The notes under the pieces were generated by a model, which ran no database searches, was not told where the DNA came from, and was given only the letters and a program-made list of their open reading frames with translations. Positions 1,813-28,039 of a stretch of DNA of 32,000 bases are shown one piece after another; the stretch's first letter is position 1; each line of letters begins with the position of its first letter. Source of the stretch: an uncultured bacterium (lineage in GTDB: Bacteria > Margulisbacteria > WOR-1 > CAVSGV01); the NCBI GenBank assembly GCA_963699255.1, contig OY969425.1:1470001-1502000 (forward strand). Direction: 5' to 3'. The translations under genes were made by a program, and so were the position numbers.

Positions 1813-1878
1813 CGGTATTCCTTCCTGGACCATGGTCATATTTGCCGGGGATCTGCCGCTGCCCTAACTTATAAAAAT

Positions 1879-1908
1879 CTGCAATTTCCTTAACATTTGG
1901 CCGATAAT
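1879..1908 (+). promoter_or_regulatory. putative sigma70-type promoter of paralog A (CTGCAA-18 nt-GATAAT)
   Basis: Both boxes and the 18-nt spacing are conserved with the copy upstream of paralog B (3591-3620). SD GGGAGA lies at 1916-1921. Confidence 0.4.
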
Positions 1909-1934
1909 ACCGTATGGGAGAAAAAGTGATATAA

Positions 1935-3521
1935 ATGCCGGGATTATCATTTGAAAAGACACAAGGATTATTGGTAAAAGGATTATTGGTAAAATATTTA
2001 CCAGGTCCTTTTGTGCAAAAACTCATGAAGGATAAAGCGCACGGTTTTCCGCACGCCAAAACAGTTTATAATATTCAACAGAACCTGCTGGAATATGGCA
2101 AAATTAGTTTAACAGAAAATGAGAATAATGTGTTGCAATGTGCGACCATGCTCCATGATATTACCATGATCGGAAGTCCAGTTGAATATATGAAAGTGTT
2201 TGCCGATCATATTGATGTCTCGAAAAACTCACTATCTCAACTTCTAACAGGTTTGGATGGATATTGTTCGTCAAGTGTCTTTATATCGGCTGGCTACTTC
2301 AAGTCAGCTTTGCAAAACCCGGATGAAAATCTTTGCCGGTTCCACCATTTGACCGCGGCTTTGTTCGCGTATAAGATCTTGCAGGAAGAACTGGGCAGTG
2401 TGGACGCTAAAATAGCAGCCTGGGCGATCCTTTTTCACCACGAAAGCAAACTGGATCAGATACCCGGCGATCCTGTGGTCCGCCTGCTGAGAGACTCGGT
2501 TAAAATCCACAGCCTTGATGAATTGAGCTTATGCAAGAACATTTCAAAGTACGTTGTTAATTATGAAAGGCCCTTTTTTAATCCTGCGATCCAGCAGAAG
2601 CTAAGAATAGACGTGCTTGAAGGCCGCAAGATACCGGATGAACAGGAGTTAGAGAATTCCGAATTGAAATTGGACGCTTTTCAGTTCGCCCTGAAAACTC
2701 TTTTTCTCGATACGAATCCTAATATGTTCGCTCTTCCTGAAATAGCCGGCCCTTACCTGCAAGATCACGATGTGTTCACCCGCTTATTAAATAGAGTGAT
2801 CCTGTCGGCCGAACAACACAAAAAGACCTCCGAGTCGCAGATCGAGAATCTCGAGTTATTAAAAATGTTATTGTCTCATGCCATGAAAAGCAGTAATTAT
2901 TCAAGCAATGTGGAAATGATCGCTAAAGGCTTGGAAGTGGTAGATATTCACCTGCGCATGACCCTTGATCAAATTGAAACAGATCTTAAATGCAACCCCC
3001 CTTCTATAGAGGGTTTATTTCTAAAAGCAAGGACGCTTCAAGCTATGGAAGATCTTAAGGCGAGTAATGACGCTTATGCGGAAGCATTTCTCCAGCAGGG
3101 ACTTGAATTCATAAAGCAAAGAGATCTGGAGGAAGCCTGTTATTATTTCGAACTATCGGAAAAATATAATCCTCATTTTTTCGAGGCTTTGCGCAACAAG
3201 GCGGGCGTACTTTTCCAATTAAAGCAATACGAAAAAGCTGTCGAATATTATGATAAAGCGATAGACGCGGCAATAGAACAAAATCTTTCCAAGCCAAGTA
3301 TCGTAAAGGTCCTGATGGTCAAGGCTTACACTCTACTTGAACCTCTTAACTCCCCTTATAAATCCCTTGTGGCAATAAAGGAAGCTCTAAAATTATTACC
3401 CGAAGATATGATACCCGAAGATACAACTGTGCTCCAAAATGACGAAGAGGCGGACTTTCTTCGTGATGAAGCCCGGCAGATCGAACGTTTAGCAGAAATA
3501 AAATATGCCATGAGGAACTGA
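1935..3521 (+). CDS. hypothetical protein, paralog A: HD-superfamily-like N-terminal region plus C-terminal TPR-like repeats
   Basis: 528-aa ORF. The motifs ATMLHDIT, FHHLTAALFAY, AILFHHE and LLRDSVKI resemble the H..HD..H..HH..D layout of HD phosphohydrolases. The C-terminus has TPR-like helices (EEACYYFELSEKYNPHFFEALRNKAGVLFQLKQYEKAVEYYDKAIDA). It is collinear with the next ORF. Confidence 0.55.
   Translation: MPGLSFEKTQGLLVKGLLVKYLPGPFVQKLMKDKAHGFPHAKTVYNIQQNLLEYGKISLTENENNVLQCATMLHDITMIGSPVEYMKVFADHIDVSKNSLSQLLTGLDGYCSSSVFISAGYFKSALQNPDENLCRFHHLTAALFAYKILQEELGSVDAKIAAWAILFHHESKLDQIPGDPVVRLLRDSVKIHSLDELSLCKNISKYVVNYERPFFNPAIQQKLRIDVLEGRKIPDEQELENSELKLDAFQFALKTLFLDTNPNMFALPEIAGPYLQDHDVFTRLLNRVILSAEQHKKTSESQIENLELLKMLLSHAMKSSNYSSNVEMIAKGLEVVDIHLRMTLDQIETDLKCNPPSIEGLFLKARTLQAMEDLKASNDAYAEAFLQQGLEFIKQRDLEEACYYFELSEKYNPHFFEALRNKAGVLFQLKQYEKAVEYYDKAIDAAIEQNLSKPSIVKVLMVKAYTLLEPLNSPYKSLVAIKEALKLLPEDMIPEDTTVLQNDEEADFLRDEARQIERLAEIKYAMRN
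1965..1994 (+). repeat. perfect 15-bp in-frame tandem duplication (ggattattggtaaaa x2, GLLVK-GLLVK) in paralog A
   Basis: 1965-1979 is identical to 1980-1994. Paralog B has a single copy of the equivalent segment (QGLLLK). Confidence 0.9.
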
Positions 3522-3590
3522 CCTTCCTGATAGGGGATCATTCTCCGCACTTATACCAAATTGAATTTACCCTGTCTAACTTGTATAAAT

Positions 3591-3620
3591 CTGCAATTTT
3601 TGGGGGTTTTGGCCGATAAT
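3591..3620 (+). promoter_or_regulatory. putative sigma70-type promoter of paralog B (CTGCAA-18 nt-GATAAT)
   Basis: Same boxes and spacing as 1879-1908. SD GGGAGA lies at 3627-3632, and the TGATATAAATG start context is shared with paralog A. Confidence 0.4.
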
Positions 3621-3645
3621 TGCAATGGGAGAAGAATTGATATAA

Positions 3646-4869
3646 ATGTCAGCATTATTATTAGAGAAGATGCAGGGATTACTGCTAAAATCTTTGCCAC
3701 AACCTTTTGTGCGAAACTTCATAAAGGATCATGCCCGCGGATTTCTGCAGAGCGTAAGGGTCAACAGGATCCAGGAGGAACTGCTGAAATCCGGAACAAT
3801 CAGCCTTACAGGGAAAGAGATTGATACGCTGCAATGGGCGACCACGCTTCATGATATTACTTATATCGAAGACCGGGCGGAATATCTGAAAGTGTTCGCC
3901 GGCAATGATGTCTCGAAAGAATCAATTTTTCCTGTTCTGACCGGTTTAAATATTGACAGCGTGGCCAAATTTCTTAGAGAAGCCGGTCAATTCAACCTGG
4001 CCCTGCAAAAAAGGGATGCGCCGCTCTACCCGTTCCATCATATAACTGCGGCTTTGTTCGCGTATAACATTTTGCGGGATGAACTCGGATCGGATGCCGT
4101 CATAGCAGCCCAGGCGATCCTGTTCCACCACGAAAGGAATTTGGATCTGATCCCTGCCAACACGGCGGTTCGCTTGCTGAGAGACGCGGTTAAAATTAAA
4201 AGCCTTAGTGAATGGGACCTGAACGAAAACATTAAAACTAATGTTAATGAATGCTCCAGGTCATTTTTTGACCCTTTTATCCCGATGAAGCTCAGAAAAG
4301 AAATACTTGAGGGGCGCGTAAGCCCGGCGGAACAGGAATCCCGCGATCCCGGATTAACACTGGATGCCTTTCAATTCGCCATGGAATTCCTTTTTCCTGA
4401 TACGAATCCTGATATGTTCGCTCTGCCCGGAATGGTCAAGCCTTACCTGGAAAGGGATCCATTGTTCTTCAAATTTTTGAACGTAATTTTAATTTCTGTC
4501 GAAAAATACGAAGAAAACACAATACCCCAGATAGAGAACCTGAGATTATTAAAAGTATTATTGCGGCTTGCCTTGAAGAACGGCAAATACTCGGGCAGTG
4601 TTGATTATATTAAAGCGGGGGAGGCGGCGGTCAAAGGTAATTTGGACTATATCCTTTTAGGGATCGAAAACTCGATAAAATCATATCCTTCCAAAGAATT
4701 CCCTTCTCTTGCGGCACTTTTGTCCCTGAAAGCCATGGCGCTTAATGCTTTGGAAAGAAATAAAGAAAGGAATGCAATTATGGCAGAGGCCTTGCTCCGA
4801 CATAGGATCGAATCAGTTATGAACGGCGATCTGGAGGGCGGAAGCCAACTTCTTGATGAAGGGGTTTAG
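3646..4869 (+). CDS. hypothetical protein, paralog B: HD-superfamily-like, shorter C-terminal helical region
   Basis: 407-aa ORF, roughly half its residues identical to paralog A by eye. Shared blocks: TLHDIT, FHHITAALFAY, AILFHHE, VRLLRDAVKI, LDAFQFA, DTNPDMFALP, QIENLRLLK. Confidence 0.55.
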   Translation: MSALLLEKMQGLLLKSLPQPFVRNFIKDHARGFLQSVRVNRIQEELLKSGTISLTGKEIDTLQWATTLHDITYIEDRAEYLKVFAGNDVSKESIFPVLTGLNIDSVAKFLREAGQFNLALQKRDAPLYPFHHITAALFAYNILRDELGSDAVIAAQAILFHHERNLDLIPANTAVRLLRDAVKIKSLSEWDLNENIKTNVNECSRSFFDPFIPMKLRKEILEGRVSPAEQESRDPGLTLDAFQFAMEFLFPDTNPDMFALPGMVKPYLERDPLFFKFLNVILISVEKYEENTIPQIENLRLLKVLLRLALKNGKYSGSVDYIKAGEAAVKGNLDYILLGIENSIKSYPSKEFPSLAALLSLKAMALNALERNKERNAIMAEALLRHRIESVMNGDLEGGSQLLDEGV

Positions 4870-4940
4870 TCTCTGCACTTAGACCAAACAGCGGCCTCTC
4901 AATTGCCCGAATGTTATGAATCCTGTCCCCCAATAAATAT

Positions 4941-4969
4941 TTGGGTTTTATCCGAAAAAATGATATAAT
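4941..4969 (+). promoter_or_regulatory. putative extended -10 promoter for secDF (TTGGGT-17 nt-TATAAT, TG at 4961-4962)
   Basis: tgatataat at 4961-4969, 20 nt upstream of the secD ATG. No obvious SD lies between them. Confidence 0.4.
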
Positions 4970-4989
4970 CCCTCTGTTTTTTAATACAC

Positions 4990-15562: not shown

Positions 15563-16669
15563 TTACGAAGCTTTTGTAAGCGGGGCGTATTTGGCCATAA
15601 GGATCTTTTCTCCGGCTGATTCGAAATTCACCTGGATGATCAGCTCGCTTTTCTCTCCGGATAATCCGACGATCTCTCCCCGGCCGAATTTCGGGTGGTT
15701 GATGGCGTCTCCAACGTTAAAATTGTATTCGATCTCCTCGGCCGGCGCATTTATCTCGATCTTTTCCTGCTTTTTTGCGCTGGCATCCGCCCTTATCAGA
15801 TTCAAGGGTATCTCTTCAAGGAACCTGGACGGCCCGTTGTACCAATTCTCGCCGAATATCAGCCTCTCCTCGGCGGATGTCAGATACAGCCGCTTCTTTG
15901 CCCTTGTCATTCCCACATAGCAGAGGCGGCGCTCCTCCTCCAGTTCCGAGGGTTCCGTCAAACTTCGATAATGAGGGAATATTCCTTCTTCCATTCCTGC
16001 GATGAAAACCACCGGGAACTCCAGCCCCTTGGCTCCGTGAAGCGTCATCAAAGTGACAGCGGGAGCGTTCTCATCCAGCTTATCCATGTCAGTCATCAGG
16101 GAGACCTGCGTCAGGAAGGCGGTCAGCGTATTCTCGGCCGAGTTCTTCTCGAATTCCTTTGCGACGGATATCAGCTCCTTTATGTTCTCGACCCTGCTTA
16201 TTGACTCGGGCGTGGCTTCCAGCTCCAGACGCTGCTTGTAGCCCGATTCATGGATGACCTTTTCGATCATTTCTGACGCCGAAAAATTCGGCAGGTCAAA
16301 CTTGAAGCCGTTGATCGTGTCGACGAACCTCTGCAGAGGTTTCTTCAGCTTTGGCGTCAGTTCCAGGTTATCGATATCCTGGATGACCTCCAGGATCGAC
16401 TTGTTCTCCTTTTCTCCCGACTCCTCAAGCTTTTTCAGCGTCCCCTTGCCGACCCCGTCGATGGTGTTCATTATCAGGCGAGCCGCGCTTATGTTGTCCT
16501 TTGAATTGACCGTCAGTCTGAGGTATGAAAGTATGTCCTTGATCTCCGCTCTCTCGTAGAACTTCACGCCGGACACTATCCTGTAAGGTATGCCCTCCTG
16601 CATGAAGACCTCTTCGAGCACGCGGGACTGGGCGTTAGTCCTGTATAGTACGACAAAATCGTTGTACAT
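15563..16669 (-). CDS. pcrA: ATP-dependent DNA helicase PcrA/UvrD, C-terminal part (gene interrupted by an apparent frameshift)
   Basis: VLYRTNAQSR, TLHGAKGLEFPVVF and YVGMTRAK helicase motifs IV-VI are present, with a C-terminal Tudor-like tail. Confidence 0.85.
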   Translation of the reverse strand: MYNDFVVLYRTNAQSRVLEEVFMQEGIPYRIVSGVKFYERAEIKDILSYLRLTVNSKDNISAARLIMNTIDGVGKGTLKKLEESGEKENKSILEVIQDIDNLELTPKLKKPLQRFVDTINGFKFDLPNFSASEMIEKVIHESGYKQRLELEATPESISRVENIKELISVAKEFEKNSAENTLTAFLTQVSLMTDMDKLDENAPAVTLMTLHGAKGLEFPVVFIAGMEEGIFPHYRSLTEPSELEEERRLCYVGMTRAKKRLYLTSAEERLIFGENWYNGPSRFLEEIPLNLIRADASAKKQEKIEINAPAEEIEYNFNVGDAINHPKFGRGEIVGLSGEKSELIIQVNFESAGEKILMAKYAPLTKAS

Positions 16670-16727
16670 GTACCTGTCCGCCAGCTTCCGTATCTCTCCC
16701 GTGATGTAGCGCGCCTCGCCGTGGGAA

Positions 16728-17693
16728 TCATGCAGTCATGAAGTGTTCGATAAGCTCGCCGTCGGCATTTTCCGTCCACAGGTTCTTTTCCTTCCTGAGC
16801 TTGTTATTTGCAATAACGCTGTTCGCGGCGTCAAGGATCGTTTTCGTGGACCTGTAGTTCTGCTCAAGCAAGATGACCTTCGCGTCCTTGTAATCGCTCT
16901 CAAAATTAAGTATGTTCTTGAAATCGGCGCCGCGCCATCCGTATATCGACTGGTCGCTGTCGCCCACCACGCAGAGATTGCGGTGCTTTTTCGCGAGCAT
17001 TTTTGTCAGCGTGTACTGGACAAGGTTCGTATCCTGGTATTCGTCCACATTGATATATCTCAGCCTGTCCTGGTAGTATTCCAGCGTCGGGGAGGACTCC
17101 CTGAAGAGCTTGACCGTGAACATTAGCATGTCATCAAAATCCATTGCGTTGTTCTTGAACAGCTTTTCCTGATACATCCTGTAAGCCGCGGCGATCTTTT
17201 CCGCGGAAATATCAAGGGCCGTATCTTCGTAAGACTGCGGGGTCTTGAGCTCGTTCTTCGCCTTGCTTATTTTTTCAAGCACTGTACGCGGCTTGAACCT
17301 GTCATCCAGGTCAAGAGCCTTGATTATCTCCCTAATCAGCGATTCCTGGTCGTCCTCGTCGAATATAAGGAAGTCCTTCCTCCATCCGATCTTATCGATG
17401 TCGTGCCTAAGGATGCGGCCGCATATGGAATGGAACGTTCCTATCCAGAGCTGGCGGGACAGCACGCCCGTCAGGCGGTTCAGGCGGTGCTTCATCTCGT
17501 TCGCGGCCTTGTTGGTGAACGTTACGGCGAGGATGCTGGACGGAGCTACGTTGTGTTCCTTGATGAGATAGGCGATGCGGTGGGTCAGGACCCTGGTTTT
17601 TCCCGATCCCGCGCCTGCTATTATCAGGAGCGGACCGTCGATGTGCTTTACGGCTTCCTGCTGGCTTGCGTTCAGGCTCTTAAGTATGGACAT
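16728..17693 (-). CDS. pcrA: ATP-dependent DNA helicase PcrA/UvrD, N-terminal part
   Basis: MSILKSLNASQQEAV..., AGAGSGKT (Walker A), TFTNKAA, DEYQDTN and QNYRST are present. The start is taken at the ATG at 17693, because the track ORF start at 17741 runs into the upstream terminator hairpin. Confidence 0.85.
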   Translation of the reverse strand: MSILKSLNASQQEAVKHIDGPLLIIAGAGSGKTRVLTHRIAYLIKEHNVAPSSILAVTFTNKAANEMKHRLNRLTGVLSRQLWIGTFHSICGRILRHDIDKIGWRKDFLIFDEDDQESLIREIIKALDLDDRFKPRTVLEKISKAKNELKTPQSYEDTALDISAEKIAAAYRMYQEKLFKNNAMDFDDMLMFTVKLFRESSPTLEYYQDRLRYINVDEYQDTNLVQYTLTKMLAKKHRNLCVVGDSDQSIYGWRGADFKNILNFESDYKDAKVILLEQNYRSTKTILDAANSVIANNKLRKEKNLWTENADGELIEHFMTA

Positions 17694-17710
17694 TGAAGGT
17701 GAATTATACC

Positions 17711-17742
17711 AAAAAAAATGCCCCGACGAAAGCCGGGGCATT
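17711..17742 (-). terminator. rho-independent terminator downstream of the OMP gene pair (minus strand)
   Basis: 9-bp GC-rich stem (aatgccccg 17717-17725 / cggggcatt 17734-17742) with an 8-nt loop. An A8 run at 17711-17718 gives a U8 tail on the minus strand. Confidence 0.75.
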
Positions 17743-19198: not shown

Positions 19199-20092
19199 AT
19201 GTCAAAGCCCCGGAAAAAATTCGATGAACTTGTCAGGATCGTCCGCCGCCTCAGGGCCAGGAACGGATGTCCCTGGGACAGGGTGCAGACCCACGCTACG
19301 CTTAAACCGTACATGGTCGAAGAGGTCTATGAGGCCCTTGAGGCCATAGATCTCAAGGATCACAAAAAACTTGCCGAAGAACTCGGCGACATGCTTCTGC
19401 ATGTGGTCATGCAGGCGGAGATCGGGCGGGAGAAGAAAGAGTTCACGCTTGATGATGTCATCGATTCAATATCCGCAAAAATGATAAGGCGTCATCCCCA
19501 CGTTTTTTCAAATAAAAAGGTAAGATCGGTCGAAGAAGTCTGGCAGAAGTGGGAGGAGATCAAGGGGAAGGAAAAGGCGGGAAAAGGGGAAGAACATAAG
19601 GGAATATTGGAAAGCGTGCCTCAATCGCTGCCGGCGCTGTATCGGGCCGATAAGGTCCAGCGGAGGGCCGCAAGGGTGGGGTTTGACTGGAACAGCATCG
19701 CAGGAGCATGGAGAAAAGTTCACGAGGAAGAAAAAGAAGTGCAAACGCTCCTGCGAAAATCCAAAATCCAAAGCTCAAAATCCAAAATAAATCTCAAATC
19801 TAAAACTCCAAAAGCCAAACAAAAAGAGAGGATCAAAGAAGAATTAGGGGATTTACTATTTGCGATAGTCAATGTATCAAGAAAACTTGATATCGATGCC
19901 GAGGAAGCCCTTCAGGACGCAACTTCGAAATTCATGAGGCGGTTCAAAGGGATAGAGCTTCACGCCAGGAAGTCGGGGCGCCACATCAGCAAGCTGACCC
20001 TTCCGGAAATGGATAAGGTATGGGAACAGGTCAAAAAAGACGAGATGAGACCCGCCTGCGCCAAGGCTTCGGCGGGCAGGGATGGGAGATGA
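19199..20092 (+). CDS. mazG: nucleoside triphosphate pyrophosphohydrolase MazG (two-domain form)
   Basis: 297-aa ORF with GCPWD, EE.YE...A, EELGD.L and RRHPHVF in domain 1, and LPAL..A.K.Q...A.VGFDW, EELGDLLFAIVN and KF.RRF in domain 2. Confidence 0.9.
   Translation: MSKPRKKFDELVRIVRRLRARNGCPWDRVQTHATLKPYMVEEVYEALEAIDLKDHKKLAEELGDMLLHVVMQAEIGREKKEFTLDDVIDSISAKMIRRHPHVFSNKKVRSVEEVWQKWEEIKGKEKAGKGEEHKGILESVPQSLPALYRADKVQRRAARVGFDWNSIAGAWRKVHEEEKEVQTLLRKSKIQSSKSKINLKSKTPKAKQKERIKEELGDLLFAIVNVSRKLDIDAEEALQDATSKFMRRFKGIELHARKSGRHISKLTLPEMDKVWEQVKKDEMRPACAKASAGRDGR
19756..19825 (+). repeat. degenerate A-rich short-period repeat (aaaatcca / aaatctca type) in frame inside mazG
   Basis: It encodes RKSKIQSSKSKINLKSKTPKAKQKE, between the EE..E and EELGDLLF motifs of MazG domain 2. 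That interval looks clearly shorter in MazG proteins as I recall them. Confidence 0.7.
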
Positions 20093-20211: not shown

Positions 20212-20790
20212 ATGCCAATGAAAGACGCCTGGAAAAACCTGTTTTTTTACTTGCTGTTCCTGCTGATAATAGTGTCGCTTCTGGCGCCGTTCTTCGGAAA
20301 CCAGCCGAAAACACAGGAACTTTCCTTTACTGATTTTTTGAACCGCGTTGACCGCCGTGAGATATCTGAAGTGTCGGTCAATGGGGATGTTTTCACCGGA
20401 AAGCTTTCTACCGGCGCGCTTTTCAAGACACGGGCGCTCAATTATCCTGACCTGATCCCCACTTTACGGGGAAAAGGCGTTAACATCAAGGTTGAACAGC
20501 CTTCCGATTCAAGCTGGCTATGGAACCTTATAATACAGCTTGTGCTTCCGCTCCTTTTCTTTGCGGGACTCTGGTGGCTCCTTATGAGGCAGGCGGCAGG
20601 TTCCTCAAGCCAGGCGCTTTCATTCGGAAAGTCCCGCGCAAAGCCGACGCAGGCAAAGATAAAAATAACATTTGCGGATGTCGCGGGAGTGGATGAAGCA
20701 AAAGAAGAACTGAAAGAGATAGTCGAATTCCTAAAGACCCCCAGAAATTCCAGAAACTCGGGGCAAAGATCCCGAAGGGCCTTCTTTTAA
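20212..20790 (+). CDS. ftsH: ATP-dependent zinc metalloprotease FtsH, N-terminal part (gene interrupted by an apparent frameshift)
   Basis: Two TM helices flank a periplasmic domain, then [21 protein letters not shown]. The frame is lost at about 20733-20742. Confidence 0.9.
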
Positions 20791-22043
20791 TGGGTGCTCC
20801 GGGGACGGGAAAGACCCTTCTCGCAAGGGCGATCGCCGGGGAGGCGGGAGTGCCTTTCTTTTCGATATCCGGCTCCGATTTTGTTGAGATGTTCGTCGGC
20901 GTTGGGGCGTCCAGGGTGAGGGATCTGTTCACACAGGCAAAAAAGCAGACGCCCTGCATAATATTCATGGATGAGATAGACGCCGTCGGCCGCCACCGCG
21001 GAGCGGGACTCGGCGGGGGGCATGATGAAAGAGAACAGACGCTGAACCAGCTGCTGGTCGAGATGGACGGGTTCGATCCGAACACGAACATCATCGTGGT
21101 GGCGGCAACGAACAGGCCCGACATCCTTGATCCGGCGCTGCTCAGGCCGGGACGGTTCGACAGGCAGATAGTTCTGGACAAGCCCGACCTTAACGGAAGG
21201 CGCGAGATCTTGAAGATACACGCGAAAGGAAAACCTTTCGCAAAGGACATGGACCTGGATATTATCGCAAGAAGGACGCCGGGATTCACGGGGGCGGACC
21301 TTGAGAACGTGTTGAATGAAGCCGCTATCCTCGCCGCCAGGGCGGATAAAAAGCAGGTAACAATGAATGAGGCAAGCCAGGCTATCGACAGGGTCATCGC
21401 CGGTCCCGAAAAAAAGAGCAAAGTGATATCGGACAGGGAAAGAGAGATAGTCGCGTATCACGAAGTGGGACACGCGCTTCTCGCGAGACTTTTGCCGAAT
21501 GCCGATCCGGTGCATAAGATATCGATACTCCCCAGGGGCCTTGCCCTCGGCTATACCTTACAACTTCCCCTTGAGGATAAGTATCTGGTCACAAAAAGCC
21601 AGGCAATGGACCAGGTGACGGTGATGCTCGGAGGCCGCGTTTCCGAAGAGATGATATTCAACGAGCTGACCTCGGGTGCCCATAATGACCTTGAACACGC
21701 GACAGAAGTCGCAAAAAGAATGGTCTGCGAGTTCGGCATGAGCAGGCTGGGACCCAGGACTTTCGGCAAGAGGGACAGGCAGGTGTTCCTCGGACGGGAT
21801 ATCGGAGAGATGAAAGATTACGGCGGGGAAACAGCGAATGCGATCGATAAGGAAATAAGATACATTATAGATGTGTGCCAAACAAGAGCGAAGAAGATAC
21901 TCTCCGCTAACAGGAGCAGTCTTGTTGCGATCGCAAAGAAAATGAAAGAAGTTGAAAATCTCGAAGGCCAGGAACTGGAGAAAGTATTCAATGATCTGGG
22001 GCTTAAAGCCAAAAACGGCGGCACCGCCAAAAAAACAAAGTAA
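20790..22043 (+). CDS. ftsH: ATP-dependent zinc metalloprotease FtsH, AAA+ and protease domains
   Basis: Walker A GAPGTGKT, Walker [32 protein letters not shown] and zinc motif HEVGHAL are present. In this frame the sequence upstream of the ATG reads [20 protein letters not shown], the expected FtsH continuation. Confidence 0.92.
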
Positions 22044-23002: not shown

Positions 23003-25705
23003 ATGAGCGAAGAATTATCTAAAATATATGAGCCGAAAATCGTTGAGGAAAAATGGTATAAGATATGGGAAGAGAACGGTTATTTTGCTCCCGATGAATC
23101 CTTAAAAACCCCGCCGTTCGTCATCGTGATCCCGCCTCCGAACGTTACCGGTTCGCTTCACATGGGTCACGCGCTTGATAACACGATCCAGGATATCCTT
23201 ATCAGGTTCAACAGGATGAAGGGTATGAGGGCGCTGTGGGTACCCGGAACGGACCACGCCGGCATCGCGACGCAGAACGTGGTGGAGAAGGAACTGGCCA
23301 AGGAGAAAAAGAGAAAAGAGGATATCGGCAGGGATAAGTTCATTGAGATGGTCTGGAAATGGAAGGAGAAGTTTGGCGGCCAGATAACGCTGCAGCTGAG
23401 GCGGCTGGGCGCATCGTGCGATTGGAAGAGGGAGCGCTTCACGATGGATGCGGGTCTTTCCCGCGCTGTCAGAAAAGCTTTTGTTTCACTGTATAACGAC
23501 GGGCTCATTTACCGCGGAAAAAGGATAATCAACTGGTGCCCGAGATGCAAAACAGCAATCTCGGATATCGAAGTGGAATACACGGAAGAGAACGGCAAAC
23601 TCTGGCACCTGAAGTATCCTGTCGAGGGGTCGAATGAATTCGTTACTGTTGCCACCACAAGACCCGAGACGATGCTCGGAGATACTGCCGTTGCCGTCAA
23701 TCCATCGGATGCGAGATACAAACGTTTTATAGGCAAGATGCTTGTTCTTCCGCTTGTCGGAAGAAGGATACCTGTGATAAAGGACGACTTTGTCGATCCA
23801 ACTTTTGGGACCGGCGCGGTCAAGGTCACTCCCGCCCATGACCCGAATGACTATGAGATAGGGCTGCGGCACAATCTCCCCCAGATAATAATGATGCATC
23901 CCGACGGGAAGGCCCATGTCAGCCATTTCCCGAAAGAAGAACAAAAAGAGATCGCCTCATATGAGGGGGTCGACCGGTTCAAGCTGAGGGATATCATCGT
24001 GGCTGACCTTGAAAAGGGCGGATATCTGGAAAAGATCGAGGACTACAAGAACAAGATCGGCAGATGCTATCGATGCAAAACTCTCATCGAGCCTTATCTC
24101 TCAGACCAGTGGTTCGTCAGGATGAAAGACCTTGTCAGGCCGGCCATACAGGCCGTTGAAGACAAGAACATCCGGTACATTCCCGACCGCTGGACAAAGG
24201 TTTACTTAAACTGGATGGAGAACCACCGTGACTGGTGCATATCCAGACAGATATGGTGGGGGCACCGCATTCCCGCTTGGGAATGCAAATCCCAAATCCC
24301 AAATCCCAAATCCCAAACAAATCCCAATGACCAAATCCCAAATCCCAAAAAGGGCTGCGGAAACATCATCGTTTCGGAAGAAGCTCCGACAAAATGCCCG
24401 AAGTGCGGCGGAACGAATTTAGTCCAGGATCCGGATGTACTGGATACTTGGTTCTCATCGTCGCTCTGGCCGTTCTCGACCCTTGGCTGGCCCGAACAAA
24501 CCAAGGACCTAGAGACATATTATCCGACAACTGTTTTGGTTACCGGATATGACATTATCACTTTCTGGGTTTCAAAGATGATCGTTATGGGCCTGAAGTT
24601 CATGAAGAAAGAGCCTTTCTCAAAGATATTCATTCACGGCCTGATAAGGGATATTACGGGCAAGAAAATGAGCAAATCGATCGGCAACGTGATAGATCCT
24701 CTGAACGTCATAGACAGGGTAGGGGCTGACGCGCTCCGCTTCTCCCTGATATCGCTGATCTCCGGACAGGGGCAGGATATCAAGTTGTCCGAAGAAAAGA
24801 TCACCGAGGGCCGCAACTTCAGCAATAAGATATGGAACGCGGCAAGGTTCATATTGGGGAAGGTATCGGGTATCAGGCATCAGGGATCAGGGTTTGCGGA
24901 CAAATGGATATTGAGCAGATATAACAAGATGATCAATGAGATCACTGAAAAACTGGAGGAATTCGACCTTGGGGAAGCCGCGAGAAAGCTTTATGATTTC
25001 ATCTGGAGCGATTTCTGCGACTGGTACCTGGAAATGTCGAAGGTCGACGCATCCGAAGAGGTCCTGTTGGAAGTTTTTGAGGGCACAATGAGGCTGTTAC
25101 ATCCGTTCATGCCTTTCATCACGGAAGAAATATGGCAGAAGTTAGAGATCAGAGATAAGAGATCAGAGATTGGAAACGCGAAACATGATAAGACGATAAT
25201 GCTTTCCCACTGGCCGAAGGCGGACAAGTCCTTGATCAATGAGAACATCGAGGATGAAATGGCCGTTGTTAAAGAGATAGTCAGGACGATAAGGAACATC
25301 AGGGCCACCTTGAACATTCCGCATTCAAAGGAACTTACCGCGTATATTTCGACGGGAAAGAAGATCGGCGCTGACCAGGTGAAATACCTGACATCGCTCG
25401 CGAGGCTCGAGAAGCTGGATATATCTTCAAAAACAAGCACAAAGATAGAAGGATCAGCAACAGCTGTCCTTCCAGACATAACCATTCATATTCCGCTCAA
25501 GGGCATAATCGACCTGAACAAGGAAGTTGACCGGCTTAAGGAAAAGATCGTTAAACTTGATGAGGAGATCGATAAAGTAAGACAAAGATTATCGGCGAAC
25601 AATAACGTTCCCGAGGACGTCCTGGATGAGTGGAAGGGCAGGGAGCAGGAGTTCTTAAAGCAGAAAGAAACGCTTCAGGACCAGATCAAGTCTCTGACCG
25701 CGTAA
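23003..25705 (+). CDS. valS: valine--tRNA ligase
   Basis: 900-aa ORF with HIGH-type motif (PNVTGSLHMGHAL), TRPET, KMSKS, an editing domain and a C-terminal coiled coil. Confidence 0.95.
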   Translation: MSEELSKIYEPKIVEEKWYKIWEENGYFAPDESLKTPPFVIVIPPPNVTGSLHMGHALDNTIQDILIRFNRMKGMRALWVPGTDHAGIATQNVVEKELAKEKKRKEDIGRDKFIEMVWKWKEKFGGQITLQLRRLGASCDWKRERFTMDAGLSRAVRKAFVSLYNDGLIYRGKRIINWCPRCKTAISDIEVEYTEENGKLWHLKYPVEGSNEFVTVATTRPETMLGDTAVAVNPSDARYKRFIGKMLVLPLVGRRIPVIKDDFVDPTFGTGAVKVTPAHDPNDYEIGLRHNLPQIIMMHPDGKAHVSHFPKEEQKEIASYEGVDRFKLRDIIVADLEKGGYLEKIEDYKNKIGRCYRCKTLIEPYLSDQWFVRMKDLVRPAIQAVEDKNIRYIPDRWTKVYLNWMENHRDWCISRQIWWGHRIPAWECKSQIPNPKSQTNPNDQIPNPKKGCGNIIVSEEAPTKCPKCGGTNLVQDPDVLDTWFSSSLWPFSTLGWPEQTKDLETYYPTTVLVTGYDIITFWVSKMIVMGLKFMKKEPFSKIFIHGLIRDITGKKMSKSIGNVIDPLNVIDRVGADALRFSLISLISGQGQDIKLSEEKITEGRNFSNKIWNAARFILGKVSGIRHQGSGFADKWILSRYNKMINEITEKLEEFDLGEAARKLYDFIWSDFCDWYLEMSKVDASEEVLLEVFEGTMRLLHPFMPFITEEIWQKLEIRDKRSEIGNAKHDKTIMLSHWPKADKSLINENIEDEMAVVKEIVRTIRNIRATLNIPHSKELTAYISTGKKIGADQVKYLTSLARLEKLDISSKTSTKIEGSATAVLPDITIHIPLKGIIDLNKEVDRLKEKIVKLDEEIDKVRQRLSANNNVPEDVLDEWKGREQEFLKQKETLQDQIKSLTA
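24287..24352 (+). repeat. (AAATCCC)4 AAAC AAATCCC AATGACC (AAATCCC)2 tract in frame within valS
   Basis: Read directly. It encodes KSQIPNPKSQTNPNDQIPNPKK between Cys codons at 24284 and 24356. Confidence 0.9.
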
Positions 25706-26495
25706 TATCCCCAAGATCGCTAATTATCTTTTGAACCCTTTTGATATCCTTGGCCTTTCCGCTGTCATCAATGTCAATGAACACCCCGTTGAACAGCCCT
25801 GGGCCTTTATCTTCCGGCTCGAACCGCTCCGGAATGGACAAAAGGAACCTCTTGATTATCTGTTCCTTCTGCACGCCGATTATTGAATCGTACGCTCCAA
25901 CCATTCCCGCGTCCGTTATAAAGGCCGTGCCTTTAGGCAGGATCCTTTCATCCGATGTCTGGATGTGGGTGTGAGTGCCGATGACCACGGAAACTTTTCC
26001 GTCCATGTACCAGGCGAGCGCGTTCTTTTCGGATGTTGCCTCCCCGTGAAGATCGACCAGTATTATCGGTGTTTCGGCCTTCATTTTTGATGCGATGGAA
26101 TTCGCCGCCTGGAACGGGCAGTTCACGCAGGACATGAACACTCTTCCCAGCAGGTTCATGACGCCGTACTTGACCCCGTTCGCCGAGAAAACATCGAAGC
26201 CCTTTCCCGGAACGCCCTCAGGGTAATTCGCCGGCCGCACGAGGTTCGGGCACGAAGAAATGTCCGGAAGGAATTCTTTCCTGTCCCAGATATGATTCCC
26301 CGTTGTTATGACATCGATGCCCATGTTCATGAGCTCGTCGTAAACTTTTTTGGTTATCCCCACACCCGCGGCGGAATTCTCGCCGTTGGCTATGACAACA
26401 TCCGGCAGGAGCTCTTCCCTGAGTTTCGGGAGCAGGTTCCTTACGATGGCGCGTCCCGGCCGCCCAACAATATCCCCTATGAAAAGTATCTTCAT
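25686..26495 (-). CDS. ymdB: YmdB-like metallophosphoesterase (2',3'-cyclic-nucleotide phosphodiesterase family, TIGR00282-like)
   Basis: 269-aa ORF with [38 protein letters not shown] and GTHTH. It overlaps the rny stop by 4 nt. Confidence 0.85.
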
Positions 26496-28039
26496 TTTGC
26501 CGTGTCCGTCGCCCTTGTTTCCCTGATGACGGTCACTTTCACCTCTCCCGGATATTCAAGTTCTGCCTCGATCTTTCTTGCGACGTCATACGCCAGTTTT
26601 GCCGACATGACATCATCAAGCTTATCCGGCTGGACGACGATCCTTACTTCCCTTCCTGCCTGGATGGCGTAGCACTTTTCAACGCCTTCAAAGGACATGG
26701 CGACTTTTTCAAGATTCCCCAGCCTCTTGATGTAGGCTTCCAGAGTATCTCTTCTGGCGCCGGGCCTTGAAGCCGATATAGCGTCCGCGACCGCGACTAT
26801 CACGGCTTCCGCGGTCTTTGCTTCCACGTCCCCGTGGTGCGCGGCTATCGCATGGAGCACTTCATCTGATTCTCCGGCTTTTTGCGCGAACGTCACGCCC
26901 AGTTTTGTGTGGGTCCCTTCGGCGTCCTGGTCGATCGCCTTTCCTATGTCGTGAAGAAGACCGGCCCTTTTCGCCAGCTTGATGTTCACTCCGAGTTCTG
27001 CGGCGATCATTCCGGCGATCTTGGAAACTTCTATGGAGTGCTGGAGAACGTTCTGGCCGTAGCTTGTCCTGTACCTTAAGCGTCCCAGCATTTGTATCAG
27101 GACCGGCGGGAGCCCGTGGACGTCCGCTTCAAAAGTAGCGCGCTCGCCGTGTTCCCACATCGCGGCCTTCAGTTCTTCTTTTGACTTGTTGTACATTTCC
27201 TCTACCCTGGCCGGGTGGATCCTTCCGTCGGCAATGAGCTTCGTCAGCGTCAGCCTTGCCGTTTCCCTTCTCACGGGATCGAATCCAGAAATGATCACCG
27301 CCTCGGGAGTATCATCCACTATAAGGTCGACCCCCGTCAGAGTTTCAAAAGCCCTGATGTTCCTTCCTTCGCGCCCGATGATGCGTCCTTTCATTTCCTC
27401 GTTCGGAAGCTCCACGACCGTGACCGTTGATTCGACAACGTGGTCGACCGCGCAGCGCTGTATCGCGGTCGAGAGTATCTCCTTTGCCATCATTTCAGAA
27501 TCCTTTTTCAGCTGCTCTTGCTTTGCCTTTATCAGCAGTGCCGATTCGCGGTCCACATCCTTTTCAAGGTTCTTTAAGAGTGTCCTCATACCTTCCTCAC
27601 GGGTCAAGCCCGACACTTTTTCAAGTTCCTTCAGGTGCTTTATCCTGAGCTCTTCAAGCAGAGCCCTGACCTTTACCAGGTCATCCTCCGCGGATTTCAG
27701 CTTCCTTCTCGCTTCCTCTATGTTCTTCTCCCTTGCGTCAATGCTCTCTTCCCGCTGGAGCAGACGTTTCTCAAGGTTGAAGAGTTCCGCCTTCCTTTCT
27801 TTTGTTTCGCGATCGAAATCCTGCCTCTGCTTGAGCGCCTCGTCCTTTGCTTCGAGTATCGCTTCTCTTCTTTTTGTCTCGGCATCGCGCTTTGAATCTT
27901 CAATAATCCGCTTTGCCGTTTCCTGCGCGACGCGTATTTTCTGCTCCGCCATGTTCTTCCTGATGATCAGGTAGGCCACGAGAAGCGCAAAAACTATCAA
28001 CGCCAGCAGCAAACCGTATATAAAACCGATAAGATTCAT
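26492..28039 (-). CDS. rny: ribonuclease Y
   Basis: 515-aa ORF with an N-terminal TM helix, a long charged coiled coil, a KH domain ([12 protein letters not shown]) and an HD domain (LLHDIGKA...HH). SD gaggagg is present. Confidence 0.93.

Follow-up and report, generated by a model that had tools for sequence, protein, structure and literature searches.

Hydrolases of the YedJ/YpgQ type, represented by YedJ of Escherichia coli (3gw7), a Bacillus thuringiensis protein (3djb), Lin1889 of Listeria (3b57) and YpgQ of Bacillus subtilis, have an all-alpha HD fold, and YpgQ is a Mn-dependent (d)NTP pyrophosphohydrolase. We examined a tandem pair of genes, here termed A and B, located between fmt and secD in an uncultured bacterium of the Saganbacteria (WOR-1, Margulisiibacteriota); the whole stretch of DNA that was analyzed, referred to as the window, comprises 32,000 nt of the 1.77-Mb contig OY969425.1 (positions 1,470,001 to 1,502,000). 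The family of proteins to which A and B belong has motifs collinear with those of the YedJ/YpgQ type (GHxxxH .. LLHD .. H .. xDADxLxxL .. R .. GRxx[FY]DPxIP), and A and B may have an all-alpha HD fold as well. The pair differs from these enzymes in having neither the metal-ligand Asp nor the ribose-binding Arg, with B also lacking the motif I His, and in that an insertion of ~50 residues separates motif II from motif III in both proteins, which also have a family-specific C-terminal extension of 150 to 300 residues, in A with tetratricopeptide repeats (TPR). Furthermore, A and B are tandem and probably co-regulated paralogs, unlike the single genes for YedJ and YpgQ, and had no significant structural match to a solved HD protein. 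On sequence grounds, the two proteins are members of the HD superfamily and belong to a very rare branch related to YedJ/YpgQ-type nucleotide pyrophosphohydrolases. The reading that we favor, with some hesitation, is that A and B may be co-regulated, hetero-oligomeric HD-fold proteins whose function is independent of H..HD..D chemistry and lies in binding, regulation or scaffolding.

Single-copy proteins of ~340 aa (P0010, P0020-P0023 and P0011-P0014), found in metagenomes only, belong to the same family, with hidden Markov model (HMM) E values of 1e-83 to 1e-23. They share the HD core and the LDxFQF, DTNP and FFDPxIP blocks with A and B but keep the H/HD/H/H/D residues, lack the last 60 to 190 residues, have no leader and lie in varied housekeeping neighborhoods. 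Polynuclear HD phosphodiesterases (PDEs; HD-GYP, PgpH and the HD domain of Cas3) resemble A in the order H..HD..H..HH and through weak Cas3 HD matches, whereas A and B have no terminal Asp, no GYP or seven-transmembrane (7TM) modules, no matches at curated thresholds and no cas or defense context. By analogy, the tandem array of which A and B are part may also be compared with pseudo-enzyme signaling domains (the inactive HD-GYP, EAL and GGDEF nucleotide sensors), which are alike in the isosteric replacement of HD by QN, in retention of the fold and pocket blocks and in the presence of less degenerate paralogs alongside but which derive from another parent enzyme class.

The A/B pair and its HD-superfamily descent

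Two same-strand open reading frames (ORFs) were located where the initial annotation, made from the sequence alone, had placed them. The coordinates of these genes and of two features within A are as follows.

1935..3521, + strand: gene A, 528 aa, paralog class 3 (ORF list)
3646..4869, + strand: gene B, 407 aa, paralog class 2 (ORF list)
3060..3518, + strand: C-terminal TPR repeats of A, with the class-3 signature ...YAMRN at the end
1963..1992, + strand: perfect, in-frame 15-bp tandem duplication in A (AAGGATTATTGGTAA twice), encoding GLLVK-GLLVK

Protein A can be divided into a degenerate HD-fold core (residues ~30-260), a family-specific helical region (~261-375) and the TPR tail (~376-528), and B into a degenerate HD-fold core and a C-terminal helical hairpin. 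Alignment by BLASTP detected 49% identity over 404 aa (E 4e-104) with small gaps only, and these values place the paralogy of A and B far past chance. Every block that had been reported by eye as shared was found (LHDIT, FHH[LI]TAALFAY, AILFHHE, VRLLRD.VKI, LDAFQFA, DTNP.MFALP and QIENL.LLK). Identity between the coding DNAs was only 69-72%. The repeat takes in non-coding DNA, as had been claimed, with a spacing of 1711-1712 bp: positions 1864-1887 and 3576-3599 are 92% identical, and positions 1914-1979 and 3625-3690, which span non-coding DNA and the start of the coding sequence, are 80% identical. Segments of A were 40-50% identical to all three of the paralog classes described below when a chimera of a class-1 N terminus and a class-3 body was considered. 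The GLLVK-GLLVK duplication falls in the poorly conserved N terminus of A and is unique to the window genome, being absent from all homologs compared. Minus-strand ORFs within the A-B region were rejected as genes; these ORFs are 113 aa or shorter and overlap A or B, and their apparent conservation mirrors that of the plus-strand fmt end and leader.

The TPR-like helices that had been seen at the end of A were recovered by the Pfam models TPR_2 (E 5e-7; 29.7 bits against a cut-off of 27) and TPR_1 (E 1e-6; 28.7 bits against 27.8), both above their gathering scores, and B was not matched. The TPR_2, TPR_1 and TPR_16 matches covered residues 386-446 of A, and consensus-TPR structures in the PDB matched residues 381-445 (E 6e-25). 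A TPR tail of the A type is common to X3 of locus L003, P0009 and P0025.

An HD-like core had been proposed from the order of the motifs, and at the level of the superfamily this proposal was borne out. Comparison of the family with E. coli YedJ by hhalign detected an 86% probability match (E 5e-6) over 135 columns that was collinear through motifs I, II, IV and V. Pfam HD (PF01966) was matched by 9 of 18 family members with a best E of 3.8e-11, while A and B taken singly fell below the cut-off of 22 bits (E 2.4e-3 and 18.6 bits for A; E 0.11 and 13.2 bits for B). A profile of the single-copy relatives matched the HD hydrolases 3djb (E 1.4e-4) and 3b57 (E 0.011). The metal ligands and substrate residues of YpgQ are H25, H29, H58, D59, D124 and R136 (review PMC8177086). 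As the 3djb alignment reproduced this numbering, with GH25xxxH29, H58-D59, the Asp of 'QDADRLDAL' and an Arg at +12 at the corresponding positions, the second Asp of 'DAD' was assigned as a metal ligand. An RNase Y is encoded elsewhere in the window (26492-28039, - strand), with RNase_Y_N, KH and HD domains (HD E 2e-21), and is followed by YmdB; as an internal control, it indicated that an intact HD domain of this genome is readily recognized, unlike the domains of A and B.

An AlphaFold (AF2) model of residues 1-370 of A, built on a 15-sequence alignment, had a predicted local distance difference test score (pLDDT) of 92, a predicted template modeling score (pTM) of 0.89 and 18 helices. The model of B had a pLDDT of 73.6, and a whole-chain Foldseek search of the PDB with this model returned noise only. 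With the A model, Foldseek detected no significant structural neighbor in the PDB or BFVD. The top PDB matches were the catalytic domains of PDE10A and PDE5A and an exopolyphosphatase (E >= 0.3, not significant), and four of the top five matches in BFVD were HD phosphohydrolases (probability up to 0.94, E >= 0.1, not significant). As modeled, A has a remote but HD-like fold, in which the final ~110 modeled residues are family specific. The earlier statement that ~200 residues downstream of the core match nothing was largely correct, although the stretch to residue ~260 recurs in the single-copy relatives and in part in 3djb (GRxFFDPxIP); the rest consists of family-specific helices.

The family is exceedingly rare: 8 of its proteins were detected by a word-indexed search of 5.8 billion clusters and 13 cluster representatives by an exhaustive HMM search of 1.84 billion protein representatives, and two further profile searches added just six more members. 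No relative was detected in a pattern scan of 185,579 GTDB species-representative genomes with the array alignment, and a pattern scan of a metagenome-contig collection likewise contained no relative of the family. In all of the public data searched, the array was spread over about six to eight contigs. Database names for these proteins did not go beyond 'hypothetical protein', except that P0025 alone is named 'tetratricopeptide (TPR) repeat protein'; P0001, P0008, P0019 and P0020 have neither a database name nor an accession. The SecD protein of the window was 86-90% identical to SecD of the closest metagenome-assembled genomes (MAGs) and 62-71% identical to that of MAGs labeled Candidatus Saganbacteria, candidate division WOR-1 or Margulisiibacteriota. 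To our knowledge, the Saganbacteria (Margulisiibacteriota) are a candidate phylum without cultured members and with many unannotated genes. The claim of novelty stood in part, in that no characterized family matches A or B over the full length. Overall, A and B make up a sub-family that is real, rare and unannotated, a variant inside the HD superfamily whose evolutionary pattern is unusual and which has a dedicated conserved leader, but they are not categorically new.

Active-site residues of array copies and single-copy relatives

The HD metal-ligand definitions were taken from PMC8177086, and a motif table was compiled for YedJ and 24 family members, consisting of 14 array copies and 10 single-copy relatives. 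The motif residues of the window proteins are as follows.

A: H36, H40, H74-D75, H137, H168-H169-E170 and R186-D187-S188-V189, with V189 at the canonical metal-ligand Asp position
B: R31, Q35, H69-D70, H131, H161-H162-E163 and R179-D180-A181-V182, with V182 at the canonical Asp position

The single-copy relatives (10/10) and YedJ keep GHxxxH, HD, H and [DS][AS]D, and an Arg is present at +12 in nine of the ten. With the motif III His, these relatives fit the pattern H..HD..H..H..D, which is diagnostic of a dinuclear site (review PMC8177086). In the array copies, motif V reads D[AS][VIA] in 14/14, and hence the ligand Asp is gone; a conserved Arg at +12 (the R136 equivalent) was not detected in any of the 14. 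The HD dyad varied with the paralog class. It is replaced by QN in all class 1 copies (3/3), is present in five of six class 2 copies, the sixth (L001) having HE, and among five class 3 copies reads HD in two, one of which is window A, KD in one and QN in two. The first His had been described as differing between A and B, and this is the case (H40 and Q35, respectively); across the array copies, the motif I His is replaced by Q in window B, by R in P0005 and in the L002 class-3 copy and by Y in two further class-3 copies.

These substitutions leave the known ligand sets incomplete in both window proteins. The metal tetrad H...HD...D is broken by V189 in A and by Q35 and V182 in B. For the YpgQ/YedJ set (H25/H29...H58-D59...D124 plus R136), only H36, H40, H74 and D75 are kept in A and only H69 and D70 in B. 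The seven-ligand set H..HD..H..HH..D, found in all known polynuclear HD PDEs (review PMC8177086), is unfilled in A and B through the missing terminal Asp. Of the known array copies, window A is the least degraded and yet carries V189. No copy with an intact HD dyad is present in L001 (QN and HE), which argues that canonical chemistry is dispensable for the role of the array. Substitution of a metal ligand inactivates YfbR (review PMC8177086), and together with the ligand losses this suggests that the array copies are unable to use the ancestral site as it stands. Conservation of the HD and HH residues among homologs, which a phosphohydrolase core would have led one to expect, therefore held only in part.

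The acquisition of a His in motif IV may leave room for a re-tooled site. Motif IV reads 'HH' in 14/14 array copies versus H[SNT] in the single-copy relatives. On this basis, the array copies could be active, re-tooled HD phosphodiesterases or phosphatases in which 'HH', the adjoining Glu and an upstream Asp (RD) compensate for the lost Asp; the substrate of such a di- or polynuclear site would be a novel phosphoester, such as a nucleotide in cyclic or linear form, and the QN copies would be regulatory partners. The occurrence of the HH-containing seven-ligand pattern in polynuclear PDEs and the identity of the top PDB matches of the A model (PDE10A and PDE5A, not significant at E 0.3) are consistent with this explanation, as are the retention of HD in most class 2 copies and the invariance of H131, H161, R217 and D240 in all 18 members of the alignment. 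The loss of the canonical terminal Asp from every copy, the absence of the first His in B and the lack of an intact dyad in either copy of L001 argue against it. Furthermore, no Pfam match of A, B or the family to the HD_5, HD-GYP, PgpH or PDEase models was detected. Overall, we consider re-tooled enzymes of this kind the main alternative, although a rather unlikely one, and a noncatalytic complex remains our preferred, if tentative, reading.

The array at the fmt-secD junction and its leader

The gene order around A and B was as originally reported, with def and fmt upstream and secD, secF and uppP downstream; priA precedes def-fmt in the syntenic loci L001 and L002. Homologs of A and B were found in three other genomes (loci L001, L002 and L003) at the same position after priA-def-fmt. 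Synteny between L001 and the window extends over >20 kb, and the L001 array runs straight into secD-secF-uppP; the contigs of L002 and L003 stop within or just past the array. In L001, a 395-aa copy is followed by a 398-aa copy. The L002 array opens with a small 226-aa gene, after which come two copies of 397 and 403 aa and one of no less than 514 aa, and that of L003 opens with a small 227-aa gene followed by copies of 395, 409 and 530 aa. The array genes of these three loci are tightly packed, with gaps of 3-49 nt. A neighbor-joining tree resolved three orthologous classes, all of them sister to the clade of ~340-aa single-copy proteins.

Class 1: ~395 aa
Class 2: ~400 aa, C terminus ...EAGN
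Class 3: ~530 aa, with a TPR tail, C terminus ...YAMRN

Class 2 was the sole class found in every array. The window array has neither class 1 nor the small 226/227-aa gene, and its order is class 3 followed by class 2, as against class 2 followed by class 3 in four other contigs. The small protein that opens the array in L002 (7735-8415) and L003 (924-1607), and which is not found in the window or L001, contains two internal repeats of ~45 aa (..KGYKNEALKW..LAK..) and a hydrophobic C terminus; it had no Pfam assignment, and its Sel1 and PH matches were sub-threshold.

The shared junction and the three orthologous classes indicated that the triplication is older than the divergence of these genomes, and this contradicts a recent insertion. 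The initial annotation had regarded the pair as an AT-rich accessory insertion, and a recent island acquired by horizontal transfer between fmt and secDF was therefore weighed against the composition and distribution data. The A-B region is the lowest-GC stretch of the window, and GC content at third codon positions (GC3) is 43.5% in A and 49.8% in B, 15-20 points under the 62-66% of the flanking genes def, fmt, secD, secF and uppP. The contrast in total GC of 30-40% against 62% that had been estimated from spot counts was not reproduced: GC was measured at 41.7% in A and 45.0% in B, while the genes on either side are at 49-53% and the window as a whole is at 49.3%, a real dip of ~8-10 points and not of 25-30. 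The GC3 dip was weak in the arrays of L002 and L003. A recent arrival would also fit the negative scan of species-representative genomes and the absence of the array near secD in the other Saganbacteria examined; in the closest species-representative relatives (SecD 86-90% identical), neither fmt nor a family member was present within 10 kb of secD. The relatives without the array are without the fmt-secD adjacency too and hence offer no 'empty site' for comparison. Against recent transfer, the same junction is filled in at least four diverged genomes (fmt dS up to ~1.5) by three orthologous classes, no integrase, transposase, tRNA or flanking repeats were detected at A and B, where the modest GC dip was the only positive sign of a genomic island, and P0010, P0020 and P0023, the single-copy proteins most closely related to the array classes, are sister to them, a position that points to descent from a ~340-aa single-copy gene.

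These results indicated that recent acquisition is very improbable and that the pair is a long-standing feature of a small lineage and not a recently inserted island. The occurrence of the array is nevertheless limited to a small sub-lineage, in which fmt and secD also have an adjacency of their own. Of the earlier account as a whole, the observations were sound apart from the composition figures, and its HD core, TPR tail and largely unmatched region were retained in the interpretation, whereas recent accessory insertion was not.

Conserved DNA was also detected immediately upstream of the array. The features of this leader, and a hairpin downstream of B, are as follows.

1864..1934, + strand: leader of gene A, 71 nt, promoter-like, ending at the ATG
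3576..3645, + strand: second leader copy, upstream of B, more diverged than the A leader
Layout: CTAACTT..CTGCAATTT (-35-like), a 15-nt variable spacer, GCCGATAAT (-10-like) and a constrained 26-nt 5' untranslated region (5'UTR), ACCGTATGGGAGAAAAAGTGATATAA, to the ATG
Leaders elsewhere: L001 8725-8795, L002 8507-8577 and L003 1656-1726 (71 nt before the first array gene)
4929..4955, + strand: weak terminator-like hairpin with a T-run in the B-secD gap, from a consensus scan only and of no functional weight

The leader of A was 82-87% identical to the first-gene leaders of L001, L002 and L003. These three were 79-90% identical among themselves, in genomes whose downstream proteins are only ~50% identical. 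By comparison, identity was 15-42% in the distal half of the spacers that contain the leaders and 49-65% in the first 72 nt of coding sequence. Conservation was concentrated in the blocks CTGCAATTT, GCCGATAAT and ACCGTATGGGAGAAAAAGTGATATAA, with the 15 nt between the first two free to vary, and this block pattern, the hexamers and their spacing suggest a -35/-10 promoter with a short constrained 5'UTR. The leader is therefore a putative promoter. The B leader was 76% identical to that of A and 69-76% identical to those of the other genomes. As the downstream paralogs in L001-L003 follow without a leader of their own, the window order of leader, class 3, leader and class 2 is a rearranged derivative.

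The leader motif had no further occurrence in the window and none elsewhere in 20 related loci, and on these grounds a generic promoter was ruled out; a simple promoter consensus scan of the window did not flag it. A scan of metagenome contigs with the leader core returned 83 matches; as none of them carried a family gene or the leader in full, these were put down to chance. An upstream mini-ORF (ATG GGA GAA AAA GTG ATA TAA) was rejected as a leader peptide because it is not conserved, L002 reading ATA...TAA. In front of the small gene of L002 and L003 lies a looser variant of the leader (TGCAAGTT..ACGATAWAT). Positions 13120-13148 of L012, which belongs to a WOR-1 MAG, are located downstream of secDF and resemble the promoter half of the leader (TGCAATTTTCTTCCGATTTTAACGATAAA), a likeness that may be due to chance; no family member was present in this MAG within the 21 kb examined.

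The rate of change of the array was compared with that of its flanks by the Nei-Gojobori method, using nonsynonymous (dN) and synonymous (dS) divergence and their ratio (omega). Between the window and L001, fmt, secD and uppP had a dS of 0.35-0.80, a dN of 0.036-0.055 and an omega of 0.07-0.13. The class-2 orthologs of the same two genomes had a dS of 0.54, a dN of 0.264 and an omega of 0.49; for other array ortholog pairs, omega was 0.19-0.30 with dS near saturation. Array proteins thus change 5-7 times faster (dN) than the flanking genes. About 50 columns are invariant among 11 array copies, including FHxLT, HHE, RLLRD, LDAFQF and DTNP, and the HD core was the most conserved part and the N and C termini the least. 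Overall, these comparisons demonstrated that the array genes are under net purifying selection.

Decay of functionless duplicates is hard to reconcile with these data. The loss of catalytic residues, an omega of up to 0.49, the lower GC3, the variable copy content and the 15-bp in-frame duplication in A could each be expected of such duplicates, and uvrD and ftsH in the window also look frameshifted. The array ORFs are, however, full length and intact in all genomes compared at 40-60% identity, omega is well under 1 in every pair, and the invariant columns and a strongly conserved dedicated leader also speak for function, so that we regard decay as highly improbable.

Neighboring genes and possible roles of the array

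A link to phage defense was examined through the neighborhood of the pair and its weak Cas3 matches. Under this explanation, the array would be an anti-phage or conflict system in which an HD nuclease-like effector, comparable to HD nucleases of the Cas3 type, is combined with a fast-evolving TPR sensor, either in one fusion protein or as separate partners. Cas3 HD models of PADLOC and NCBIfam matched residues ~120-205 with E values of 1.5e-5 to 1e-3, the best being a partial PADLOC match at 1.5e-5 (23 bits); these matches fell under every curated cut-off (17.3 bits against 43.45 for NCBIfam cas3_HD) and reflected generic HD motifs only. The elevated dN, the lower GC and the variable paralog content would also be in keeping with a conflict system. 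The position of the array is fixed among housekeeping genes in all carriers, its catalytic residues are degenerate, and no defense partner, CRISPR array or mobility gene was detected in the window or syntenic loci. The earlier report of no nuclease, ATPase or mobility gene near the pair was confirmed, and a scan of the window detected no tRNA, Rfam RNA or CRISPR-like array. Viral protein structures yielded generic HD hydrolases only. The single-copy relatives P0020 and P0023 lie among varied housekeeping genes with no recurrent partner.

The most distant family member, P0019 (531 aa; L052 6669-10867), was the sole member found in a defense or mobile context and has been counted in favor of a defense role. 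It has an intact HD core and an N-terminal hydrophobic region of ~270 aa that looks membrane spanning, and it is encoded directly after a 758-aa TPR protein in a restriction/mobile island with HsdM, Mrr, resolvase and DUF4417/DUF3987 genes. Taken together, we consider a defense function for A and B improbable.

Downstream of uppP, the window encodes a 96-aa EF-Tu-domain-2-like protein, LarA, AbpE and a metallophosphoesterase, followed, according to the annotation of the syntenic L001, by IGPD (hisB) and RuvB. A TPR-SLT transglycosylase, UvrD, outer membrane protein (OMP) beta-barrel proteins, MazG, FtsH, ValRS, YmdB, RNase Y, RecA and others are encoded further downstream. The uvrD/pcrA gene (15563-17741, - strand) is split into a UvrD-helicase N ORF of 337 aa and a UvrD_C ORF of 368 aa, with a change of frame near 16730; the canonical sequence continues in another frame, and the split reflects an indel in the assembly or else a genuine disruption. 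The ftsH gene (20212-22043, + strand) is likewise split into an FtsH_ext ORF of 192 aa and an AAA+M41 ORF of 417 aa in different frames; reading continues without a break in the downstream frame, which places the frameshift before 20740. These two splits suggest assembly indel errors and caution with regard to all ORF calls in the window. Within valS (23003-25705), a 7-nt repeat, CAAATCC, is present in ~9.6 copies (24286-24349), keeps the frame and encodes a low-complexity insert (KSQIPNPKSQTNPNDQIPNPKK). The MazG-domain gene (19199-20092) contains an imperfect tandem repeat of 26-32 nt (AAATCCAAAA...) at 19757-19819; as MazG is a nucleotide pyrophosphohydrolase, the window genome has a separate house-cleaning NTP pyrophosphatase.

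The favored reading, that of a hetero-oligomer acting by means other than the ancestral chemistry, can be set out as a series of steps. A single-copy gene for a YedJ/YpgQ-like metal-dependent nucleotide phosphohydrolase would have been triplicated in a small sub-lineage of the Saganbacteria, with A (class 3) and B (class 2) as the two survivors of this lineage-specific tandem array in the window. After duplication, the copies would have gained C-terminal helical or TPR extensions, exchanged the fourth metal ligand (the Asp of 'DADK') for a hydrophobic residue and lost the ribose-binding Arg. The first His and the HD dyad would have been lost to differing degrees among copies, so that the ancestral H..HD..D chemistry would no longer be possible. 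The copies would act jointly as a co-regulated hetero-oligomer of HD-fold subunits, in which the class-2 subunit may be the indispensable core and the TPR tail of A may recruit a partner protein; the role of the complex would be mainly in binding of a ligand (nucleotide or phosphate), regulation or scaffolding. In the window, each gene would be driven by its own copy of the conserved promoter/leader. We infer hetero-oligomerization from the observations that the copies are always encoded together, that class 2 is always present and that characterized HD phosphohydrolases are oligomeric, YfbR and YpgQ acting as dimers and most triphosphatases as tetramers or hexamers (review PMC8177086). The tight packing of the genes in L001-L003 and the common leader likewise speak for joint function.

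The very narrow distribution of the array limits its importance, and the pair bears on no long-standing open question. A more far-reaching proposal, which we think unlikely, is that the array forms a new HD-derived hetero-oligomer of two to three fast-diverging paralogs with complementary catalytic losses, one of them fused to TPR, which would serve as a nucleotide-sensing complex or contain an 'H..HD..H..HH' center without the terminal Asp. If true, this would constitute a new functional subclass of the HD superfamily, with its own promoter-leader and confined to a sister lineage of the Cyanobacteria. The leader itself was flagged by this analysis as a lineage-specific regulatory element. If the favored reading is right, the array would provide HD biochemists with a test case for metal binding by H..HD..H..HH without a terminal Asp. 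It would also be a compact example of the passage from enzyme to pseudoenzyme, or of the re-tooling of an active site, after tandem duplication, in a family in which ancestral-like single-copy forms survive for comparison.

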